From the NCBI RefSeq assembly GCF_045037415.1, contig NZ_CP173438.1: a DNA stretch of 64,000 nt. The stretch is one strand, 5' to 3'. Positions 39,001 through 42,000 of the stretch are shown here, one piece after another (the stretch's first letter is position 1; each line of letters begins with the position of its first letter). This DNA is from Escherichia coli. Lineage in GTDB: Bacteria; Pseudomonadota; Gammaproteobacteria; Enterobacterales; Enterobacteriaceae. A program made the position numbers.

Positions 39001-42000
39001 CGCACCCACGGTGTGCTGCGTCCAGCCCAGCGCGTACAGGAAGGTGGTTGTGCGATCCGGTGCGCTGGTGGAGGCCAGCACTTCACACACTTTCAGGAAG
39101 TCGGCTTTTGGCGTACCGCAAATGTTTTCTACTACGTCCGGCGTGTAGCGGGAAACGTGCGCTTTCAGCAGATTCCATACACAGCGCGGATGAGTCAGCG
39201 TGTCATCGCGTTTCGCATAGCCGTTTTCATCGAACTGATAGTTCCAGGACGACTTATCGTATTGACGTTTTTCAGCGTCGTAGCCGCTGAACAGACCGTC
39301 TTCGAAAGCAAAATCATCACGCACCAGCAGGCTGGCGTTGGTGTAATGCTTAACGTATTCGGCGTTGATTTTGTTGTTTTCGATCAGGTAGCGCAAAACG
39401 CCAGACAGGAACGTAATGTCCGTACCGGAACGAATAGGTGCGTAAATATCCGCCACAGAAGCGGTACGCGTAAAACGGGGATCGACAACGATCAAGGTTG
39501 CATCGTTGTTGTTTTTCGCTTCCATCGCCCAGCGGAAACCGACGGGATGCGCTTCAGCAGCGTTACCGCCCATCACCATTACGACGTTAGCGTTTTTGAT
39601 ATCCACCCAGTGGTTGGTCATCGCACCGCGACCAAATGTTGGAGCAAGACTTGCTACCGTTGGTCCGTGTCAGACGCGCGCCTGGTTGTCTACCGCCAGC
39701 ATCCCGAGGGAGCGGGCAAATTTTTGAGTCAGCATCCCGGTTTCGTTGCTGGCACCGGAAGCACACAGCATACCGGTAGAAAGCCAACGGTTTACCGTTA
39801 CGCCCTGCTCGTTCTTTTCAATAAAGTTAGCGTCACGGTCGGCTTTCATCAGCTTCGCAATACGGGAGAATGCTTCTTCCCAGCTAATGCGCTGCCATTT
39901 GTCAGAACCTGGCGCACGATATTCCGGGTAGCGCAGACGGTTTTCGCTGTTGACATAATCCAGCAAACCGGCCCCTTTCGGGCACAGCGCACCACGACTT
40001 ACCGGATGATCCGGGTCACCTTCAATGTGATAAATCGCTTCTCTGGCGTTTTTCGCGCCATCACCCAGGCTATACATCAATAGCCCGCAACCTACGGAAC
40101 AGTATGTGCAGGTGTTACGGATCTCTTTCGCGCGTAATAATTTGTAGTTTCGCGCCTGAGCCAGTGCTTGCTTCGGGGCAAAGCCCAATGCTGCTACTGT
40201 TGTTCCCGCCATACCGCCCGCGCAGATTTTAAAAAATTGTCTGCGACTGACGTCCATTGCTTTCCTCTTTTTTCAGGGGTATTACTGCGCGAGGAAACTA
40301 ACAGTAAAATTCTGAATCTTTTTGCGCGAAATCAAAAAGAACACGTGTTTGCCACAAAATAATCCGCCTGCGCAAATTGACCTACCTCAATAGCGGTAGA
40401 AAAACGCACCACTGCCTGACAGGCCAGTTAAAAAAATGCTATAAAATTCAGCTTAATTTTTAACGGCAAGAGAGACAAAACAGCGAGCATGACACGTCAA
40501 AAAGCAACGCTCATAGGGCTAATAGCGATCGTCCTGTGGAGCACGATGGTAGGATTGATTCGCGGTGTCAGTGAGGGACTCGGCCCGGTCGGCGGCGCAG
40601 CTGCTATCTATTCATTAAGCGGGCTGCTGTTAATCTTCACGGTTGGATTTCCGCGTATTCGGCAGATCCCGAAAGGCTATTTACTCGCCGGGAGTCTGTT
40701 ATTCGTCAGCTATGAAATCTGTCTGGCGCTTTCCTTAGGGTATGCGGCGACCCGTCATCAGGCGATTGAAGTGGGGATGGTGAACTATCTATGGCCCAGC
40801 CTGACAATTCTCTTTGCCATTCTGTTTAATGGTCAGAAAACCAACTGGCTGATTGTACCAGGATTATTATTAGCCCTGGTCGGCGTCTGCTGGGTGTTAG
40901 GCGGTGACAATGGGTTACATTATGATGAAATTATCAATAATATCACCACCAGCCCATTGAGTTATTTCCTGGCGTTCATTGGGGCGTTTATCTGGGCAGT
41001 CTACTGCACAGTAACGAATAAATACGCACGCGGATTTAACGGAATTACCGTTTTTGTCCTGCTAACGGGAGCAAGTCTGTGGGTTTACTATTTTCTTACG
41101 CCACAACCAGAAATGGTATTTAGCACGCCCGTCATGATTAAACTCATCTCTGCGGCATTTACCTTAGGATTTGCTTATGCTGCATGGAATGTCGGTATAT
41201 TACATGGCAACGTCACCATAATGGCGGTAGGTTCGTATTTTACGCCCGTCCTTTCCTCAGCGCTTGCAGCCGTGCTGCTCAGCGCCCCGCTGTCGTTCTC
41301 GTTCTGGCAAGGCGCGCTAATGGTCTGCGGCGGTTCCCTGCTCTGCTGGCTGGCGACACGTCGTGGCTAAAATAATTGTCGGGTCTACGGCCCGGCAGTT
41401 AATCAGATAAATTCTGACAATATTAAAAAATAAATTTCAAATACCAGAAAGTCATTTTAGTTACATTTAGTAACACATATCTGTCTGTTTAATCCACATT
41501 CTGCCCCCGCAGTTACGCTTTCTTATCTATTCTTCTAATCAGCACTTCACCTGATTCATCCTTAATTCTAATAACTGGCTATTGCGCCTTACCTCCTGTT
41601 TTGTCTTTTTTTCATTACCAATGTGTGCATGTGAGGAACAATATGGCACTGCAAAATGAGAAAAATAGTCGTTATCTTTTACGCGACTGGAAACCAGAAA
41701 ATCCGGCCTTCTGGGAAAATAAAGGAAAGCATATTGCACGAAGAAACCTCTGGATATCAGTCAGTTGTCTACTTCTTGCCTTCTGTGTCTGGATGCTATT
41801 TAGCGCAGTTACTGTTAATCTCAATAAAATCGGTTTTAATTTTACTACCGATCAACTCTTTTTATTAACCGCATTACCCTCCATTTCTGGCGCATTATTG
41901 CGTGTCCCCTACTCCTTTATGGTGCCTATATTCGGTGGACGCCGATGGACGGTTTTTAGTACTGCAATCCTGATTATTCCTTGCGTCTGGCTCGGAATTG

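Follow-up and report, generated by a model that had tools for sequence, protein, structure and literature searches.

The internal UGA of Escherichia coli fdnG as a selenocysteine codon followed by a SelB-type hairpin

The closest described counterpart of the site considered here is the Sec196 codon of K-12 fdnG, for which direct experimental evidence of selenocysteine (Sec) recoding, with SelB binding and read-through that depends on selenium, was reportedly published in 1991 (J Biol Chem 266:22380 and 266:22386, by Berg, Li, Heider and Stewart and by Berg, Baron and Stewart); Sec196 is reported to ligate the molybdenum in the crystal structure (Jormakka et al. 2002). The paralogue fdoG (formate dehydrogenase-O), which differs in lying at another locus adjoining fdhD, also has Sec at residue 196 and carries an element of the Rfam family SECIS_3 (RF01989). 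The experimentally dissected prototype is fdhF (formate dehydrogenase-H), whose element belongs to SECIS_2 (RF01988). According to the portion of PMC8659212 that summarises Liu et al. 1998, the minimal SECIS of E. coli is a hairpin at a distance of 11 nt from the UGA, and SelB contacts U17, G23 and U24. SelB, together with GTP and Sec-tRNA(Sec), occupies the hairpin, the lower helix is unwound and Sec is delivered in the place of release factor 2 (RF2) (PMC13188914, PMC4605307). Eukaryotic and archaeal SECIS elements likewise direct UGA to selenocysteine through mRNA structure, but they are located in the 3′ UTR, use a kink-turn or GAA_A motif and depend on extra factors; the fdnG element is unlike them in being placed inside the coding sequence and, as expected of the bacterial type, would bind SelB directly (PMC13188914, PMC4605307).

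Our analysis of a 64-kb window (the whole stretch of E. coli DNA that was analysed) revealed nothing that sets the fdnG site apart from that of K-12: the gene, codon 196 and the TGA with its next 50 nt are all the same, and the TGA and 50 nt are also identical in K-12 fdoG. The operon and its neighbours are alike as well, with the gene order yddG/fdnG-fdnH-fdnI/yddM matching K-12. The protein differs from the K-12/1kqf sequence at five of the aligned residues listed. A 3.5-kb piece around the site is 100 % identical to many complete E. coli genomes, in which it is annotated as yddG/fdnG/fdnH, and fdnG itself is 100 % identical to annotated fdnG in several E. coli genomes. Over its full length, the window matches strain SK1144 (NZ_AP018784.2, positions 2462320–2526319) at 99.99 % identity, with 4 mismatches and one 2-base gap, so the SK1144 annotation transfers directly to the window coordinates. 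The product of fdnI passes the formate dehydrogenase-N gamma subunit model NF007558 (Table 1) and fails that of formate dehydrogenase-O (NF007924: 270 bits, under the cutoff of 341), indicating that the gene at this locus is fdnG and not the paralogue fdoG. Two antisense ORFs overlying fdnG (38914–40083 and 37255–38844) returned no Pfam match, and scanning for promoter-like and terminator-like sites gave no excess, the counts being at or below shuffle expectation.

Table 1. Coordinates of the fdnG recoding site, its RNA elements and the fdn operon genes within the window
Feature	Coordinates	Strand	Basis or description
Full SECIS element	39617..39675	-	Rfam SECIS_3 (RF01989) match, 59 nt
UGA codon 196, read as selenocysteine	39670..39672	-	Same codon and position in K-12 fdnG and fdoG; X196 of 1kqf_A
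11-nt spacer CACGGACCAAC, UGA to upper hairpin; also 5′ arm of lower helix	39659..39669	-	Sequence and MFE fold
Upper stem-loop GGUAGCAAGUCUUGCUCC, predicted SelB-binding minimal hairpin	39641..39658	-	MFE fold, RNAalifold, covariation
Lower helix 3′ arm UUGGUCGCGGU, pairs with 39660-39670	39625..39635	-	MFE fold; weaker support than upper helix
fdnG CDS	37210..40257	-	Formate dehydrogenase-N alpha subunit, 1015 aa, Sec at 196
fdnH	36313..37197	-	Iron-sulfur beta subunit, fdnG operon; TIGR01582 482 bits vs cutoff 335; identical-genome annotation
fdnI	35667..36320	-	Cytochrome b556 gamma subunit, fdnG operon; NF007558 486 bits vs cutoff 339; annotation

The ORF listing presents fdnG as two pieces in the same minus-strand frame, 39670..40257 (195 aa) and 37210..39621 (803 aa with its first ATG taken as the start). 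The sequence-only reading held that these pieces share a frame and are parted only by the TGA at 39670–39672, and translation of the whole interval bears this out: it yields a single 1016-codon frame whose sole internal stop is codon 196 (context GCG CGC GTC TGA CAC GGA CCA), and the gap between the two listed ORFs (39669–39622) is likewise open. The protein begins with a twin-arginine signal (MDVSRRQFFK) and encodes Fe4S4, Molybdopterin and Molydop_binding Pfam domains, of which the Molybdopterin domain (residues 107–589) crosses codon 196. The equivalog model TIGR01553 (NCBIfam) matches residues 2–1014 unbroken, its score of 1619 bits being well over the cutoff (814). PDB entry 1kqf_A, the major subunit of formate dehydrogenase-N, aligns over residues 1–1015 and has an unknown residue, X, at codon 196; among the aligned residues listed there are 5 substitutions, all distant from residue 196. 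In the structure, this residue is reportedly selenocysteine bound to the molybdenum (Jormakka et al. 2002). The identification as the known formate dehydrogenase-N selenocysteine site, also proposed from the sequence, thus agrees both with the K-12 gene and with X196 of 1kqf_A.

A genuine truncation, with the TGA acting as a true stop, fdnG reduced to a pseudogene or split gene and the 195-aa fragment as the sole product, might be read from the way mechanical ORF calling divides the gene, and UGA is after all a normal stop codon. Partial termination at Sec codons also occurs: for fdhF, recoding proceeds with an efficiency of ~30–40 %, and the ribosomes that fail are terminated by RF2 (PMC4513850). 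Recoding is expected to be incomplete here too, and some truncated FdnG would thus belong to normal function. Against a truncation, the 819 codons downstream of the TGA are open and 99.5 % identical to the crystallised FdnG; K-12 fdnG and fdoG have the TGA as well, as do 118 homologues that span several phyla; a SECIS element with covariation (described below) follows it; and of 5433 E. coli records, 5406 match the 101 nt surrounding the site at 99 % identity or more. Sequence, domains and solved structure all run unbroken through the TGA, so FdnG is not truncated; we consider a true stop at this position extremely improbable. Codon 196 of fdnG is almost certainly a programmed selenocysteine codon with a SelB-type hairpin 11 nt downstream.

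The RNA downstream of the codon supports this reading. Using cmscan, we obtained a match to the SECIS_3 covariance model over all of its positions (1–59 of 59); the score of 84.3 bits exceeds the gathering score of 63, with E = 1.6e-20 for the local search and 1.4e-18 when the entire window is considered, and SECIS_3 was the only Rfam family to reach gathering level within the 64 kb. The interval first proposed for the site, 39620–39672, was correct, the full model match being 39617–39675. The fdhF-type family SECIS_2 was rejected, with 28.8 bits falling far under its threshold of 70, so the element is of the FdnG/FdoG type and not of the FdhF type.

The upper hairpin is composed of 7 pairs within 18 nt; a single U bulges out at 39656, and GUC forms the apical loop at 39650–39648. 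Counting from the U of the UGA, the bulge is U17 and the loop supplies G23 (39650) and U24 (39649), so that the fdnG element has the determinants of the minimal SECIS, namely the 11-nt distance, the bulged U17 and the loop G23 and U24. These it shares with fdhF (PMC8659212), along with the UGA itself and a U-H-G-P protein context, whereas the stem sequences are different and the fdhF hairpin is 17 nt rather than 18 nt in length. The bSECIS model specifies a loop of 3–9 nt, an upper stem of 4–16 bp, a G within the first two loop positions, 16–37 nt between UGA and loop and a minimum free energy (MFE) of -7.5 kcal/mol or lower (PMC13188914). The fdnG element falls within every one of these ranges (3-nt loop GUC with G first, 7-bp stem, 19-nt spacing, MFE -14.6 kcal/mol). 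The UGA is in-frame and immediately upstream of the element, the gene belongs to a known selenoprotein family, and the position is homologous to a known Sec.

Folding energy on its own does not make the case. The sequence-only reading described a sequence able to form a stem-loop immediately after the TGA, and the 53-nt stretch 39620–39672 does fold as a bulged stem-loop at -14.6 kcal/mol; that part of the claim stands, but the fold is weak evidence when taken alone, as it displayed no excess stability over dinucleotide shuffles (z = -0.67; 42/200 shuffles folded at least as well). Members of the bacterial SECIS family are not defined by folding more stably than random sequence of matched composition. 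As the fold energy is unremarkable, we dropped stability as evidence and used the covariance model and covariation in its place; the case rests on consensus and covariation, not on stability.

For the comparative analysis, one genome per species was scanned with a pattern encoding D-N-Q-A-R-V-UGA. Because all of this pattern falls 5′ of the hairpin, the search does not bias the stem columns. It returned 120 stretches, 118 of which continue in the FdnG frame U-H-(G/A/S)-P-T-V...; the remaining two (L072 and L073) were chance matches without that frame and were removed. The 118 sites, which derive from Enterobacterales, Pseudomonas, Burkholderiales, Alphaproteobacteria, Eggerthellales, a Terriglobia MAG and Geomesophilobacter, reduce to 73 distinct 62-mers in a gap-free alignment.

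Across these 73 distinct homologues, 99 % of the cells of the upper helix are paired, and compensatory changes were detected in 3 of its 7 pairs: columns 21–33 (GC/AU/UA/GU), 22–32 (GC/UG) and 24–30 (AU/CG/GC). Columns 21 (Val), 24 (Ala/Ser), 30 (Leu) and 33 (Ala) are each the third base of a codon, and pairs 21–33 and 24–30 change synonymously; covariation in these columns therefore cannot stem from the protein. Changes in pair 22–32, by contrast, are accompanied by amino-acid changes. The observed covariation score was reached by 0 of 500 shuffles, and when the 3′ partners were slid by 1–3 columns as a control, pairing fell from 91 % to 26–50 %. RNAalifold, given the alignment as its only input, predicted exactly the upper hairpin and nothing else. 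The proposed comparison with the SECIS consensus has thus come out in favour of the site on three counts, the covariance model, the published determinants and the covariation.

The lower helix is a different matter. Across the 73 homologues, its pairing amounts to 84.9 % in the Rfam register and to 82.1 % in that of the E. coli MFE fold, so that the Rfam register, considered as a clear choice, was rejected: neither wins. In E. coli, A12-G44 and A8-C48 fail to pair in the Rfam register, and the MFE register, offset from it by a single base, is the better fit; A12-U45, as in E. coli, and C12-G44, as in the majority, suit different registers. Because the register is ambiguous, we make a firm claim for the upper helix only.

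We also considered whether a standard near-cognate tRNA, for Trp or Cys, might read the UGA, with the hairpin acting only as a generic stimulator of read-through. Low-level misreading of UGA does exist in E. coli, and the identity of the residue at codon 196 is here deduced from sequence comparison. Such a reading does not account for the conservation of specific SelB determinants, however: the bulged U, the loop G and the loop U are invariant columns in the 73 distinct homologues, as is the 11-nt spacing, and 1kqf_A has a non-standard residue, X, at 196. It is also at odds with the selenocysteine machinery, for which the sequence-only reading had looked to selA, selB and selC elsewhere in the genome. 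The 64-kb window contains no tRNA gene and no sel genes, and SK1144, a near-identical genome, was therefore taken as a proxy. In SK1144, the gene for tRNA-Sec (selC) is found at 45439–45533 and selA and selB are intact at 122668–125900, so that the expected genes are present in a genome 99.99 % identical over the window. Among complete E. coli genomes, the selAB operon is present in 5425/5426, selD in 5425/5426 and selC in 5424/5426. The presence of the sel genes is thus judged from the proxy genome, where the set is complete, and from E. coli at large, where it is near-universal, and not from the source genome itself. Taken with the invariant determinants, this leaves read-through by a near-cognate tRNA with next to no chance of being correct, and we retain programmed Sec insertion as the explanation.

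Conservation of the site at the nucleotide level is pronounced. Overall identity between fdnG and fdoG is 74.6 % at the nucleotide level and 77 % at the amino-acid level, yet the two genes share a longest identical run of 71 nt (39675–39605) that begins three bases 5′ of the TGA. An identical 62-mer was found at 20 loci of other Enterobacterales genera (Providencia, Yersinia, Photorhabdus, Citrobacter, Enterobacter, Klebsiella and others), whose flanks (~460 nt of coding sequence) are only 73–85 % identical, or 95 % in E. albertii. Among 105 distinct sequences, the codons of Thr+4 and Ser/Gly+7 do not vary in their third base (zero entropy). These patterns point to a constraint that acts at the nucleotide level.

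The 71-nt identity could in principle be the product of recent gene conversion between the paralogues and nothing more, in which case it would be silent on RNA function. Paralogues within one genome can exchange sequence, and the identity run overshoots the modelled helices by ~20 nt, reaching 39605. Against this stand the identical 62-mer at the 20 loci of other genera with their diverged flanks and the compensatory substitutions displayed by the helix across wider taxa. Conversion could contribute to the identity but cannot account for it, and we think it very unlikely as the whole cause. Even if it were true, the reading of codon 196 as a Sec site would be unchanged.

The frozen 62–71 nt are common to both paralogues and to at least eight Enterobacterales genera, and in this lineage the lower helix pairs one base out of step with the Rfam consensus. 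It is conceivable, though doubtful, that the element is frozen well beyond what SelB binding needs and is under an additional, undescribed constraint; the site would still be the known Sec codon. Candidate causes of such a constraint could include tuning of recoding versus RF2 termination by the lower helix and the downstream bases, a second ligand or recurrent fdnG/fdoG conversion.

Going by the literature on the homologous systems, recoding at this site would proceed as follows. During translation, the C-terminal domains of SelB, which carries GTP and Sec-tRNA(Sec) (the selC product, charged via SerRS, SelA and SelD), would bind the hairpin at 39658–39641, and the advancing ribosome would melt the lower helix. 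With the UGA in the A site, the tethered SelB complex would deliver Sec-tRNA(Sec) instead of release factor 2, and translation would continue to give the full-length FdnG of 1015 residues. In respiratory formate dehydrogenase-N, the Sec would then ligate the molybdenum of the bis-MGD cofactor.

The fdnG site is the textbook instance of UGA recoding in bacteria; it was described in this very gene in 1991 and can be seen in the crystal structure of 2002. It is identical to the K-12 prototype and has been known since 1991, so its recognition here adds no new knowledge. Minor extras of specialist interest are the cross-phyla covariation at synonymous positions, the exact 62-mer shared among Enterobacterales and the ambiguous register of the lower stem. 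For annotation, the finding means that the two ORF pieces are to be joined as one selenoprotein gene and not recorded as a pseudogene.

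Relative to K-12, the gene content around fdnG, the formate dehydrogenase-N alpha subunit gene, differs in several places; the table lists these and other features. In K-12, tam and hipBA are separated by a pseudogene, yneO, and by the first part of the lsr operon for AI-2 uptake. In the window, tam and hipB are direct neighbours, so this position lacks at least yneO and lsrK. The genes osmC and dosP, which in K-12 flank the ddpXABCDF operon of ~6 kb, lie 190 bp from each other in the window, where this operon is missing; yddB and yddA, both present in K-12, are absent too.

The ydeQRS-type fimbrial operon is complete in the window and comprises a major subunit, a chaperone and a full-length usher of 2.65 kb; in K-12, the usher ydeT is cut down to 1.15 kb, with no annotated major-subunit or chaperone genes beside it. 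A RelE/ParE-family toxin gene, annotated as a pseudogene in the near-identical SK1144 genome, lies upstream of yddM, at a spot for which K-12 has no annotated toxin.

Features of the window (coordinates are window positions)
Feature	Position	Strand	Remarks
tam–hipB junction	5303-5611
ydeQRS-type fimbrial operon	8110-14472	+	complete; annotation compared with K-12
pqqL	21670-22587		C-terminal remnant only; comparison with K-12
dosC remnant	27868-28031		164 bp, just upstream of intact dosP; comparison with K-12
osmC–dosP gap	30455-30645
RelE/ParE-family toxin gene	35056-35333	+	frameshifted pseudogene in the annotation of near-identical strain SK1144
yddM	35333-35617		HigA-like antitoxin; adjoins the toxin gene
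fdnG/fdoG identical run	39605-39675	-
Lower SECIS helix, E. coli type	39660-39670 and 39625-39635	-	two arms
ISEc1 (ISAs1-family) transposase gene, ydcC	~52508-53644	-	between yddH and ansP
GntR-family gene remnants	~59550-59773		short; further on from the ISEc1 transposase gene

For fdnG itself, 25 E. coli records of the genome collection gave a best match to the query of only 60-80 % identity, a level that corresponds to its paralogue fdoG. In strain 97.3, one example of these records, the query matches at a single place; this is the locus of fdoG, to which the annotation pipeline (PGAP) gives the name fdnG. A small minority of E. coli may be without fdnG.

Pairwise comparison of the two paralogues, which are 74.6 % identical overall, revealed that their longest run of nucleotide identity (71 nt) starts three bases ahead of the selenocysteine (Sec) codon. 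The 62-mer of the fdnG SECIS region has an identical copy at 20 loci of other Enterobacterales genera, the flanks of which display only 73-85 % identity (E. albertii, 95 %).

The best pairing register of the E. coli-type lower SECIS helix is one base off the Rfam SECIS_3 consensus (A12-U45, not C12-G44), and comparison of the two registers across 73 homologues returned no clear winner. Among fdnG-type Sec sites from the one-genome-per-species scan, the post-Sec peptide VASLAP is replaced by VSSLGP in an alphaproteobacterial-type group (L018, L022, L033, L038, L053, L106, L132 and others), and pairing of the RNA stem is kept (GUCC...GGGC). In this group, the protein sequence after Sec appears to move together with the hairpin.
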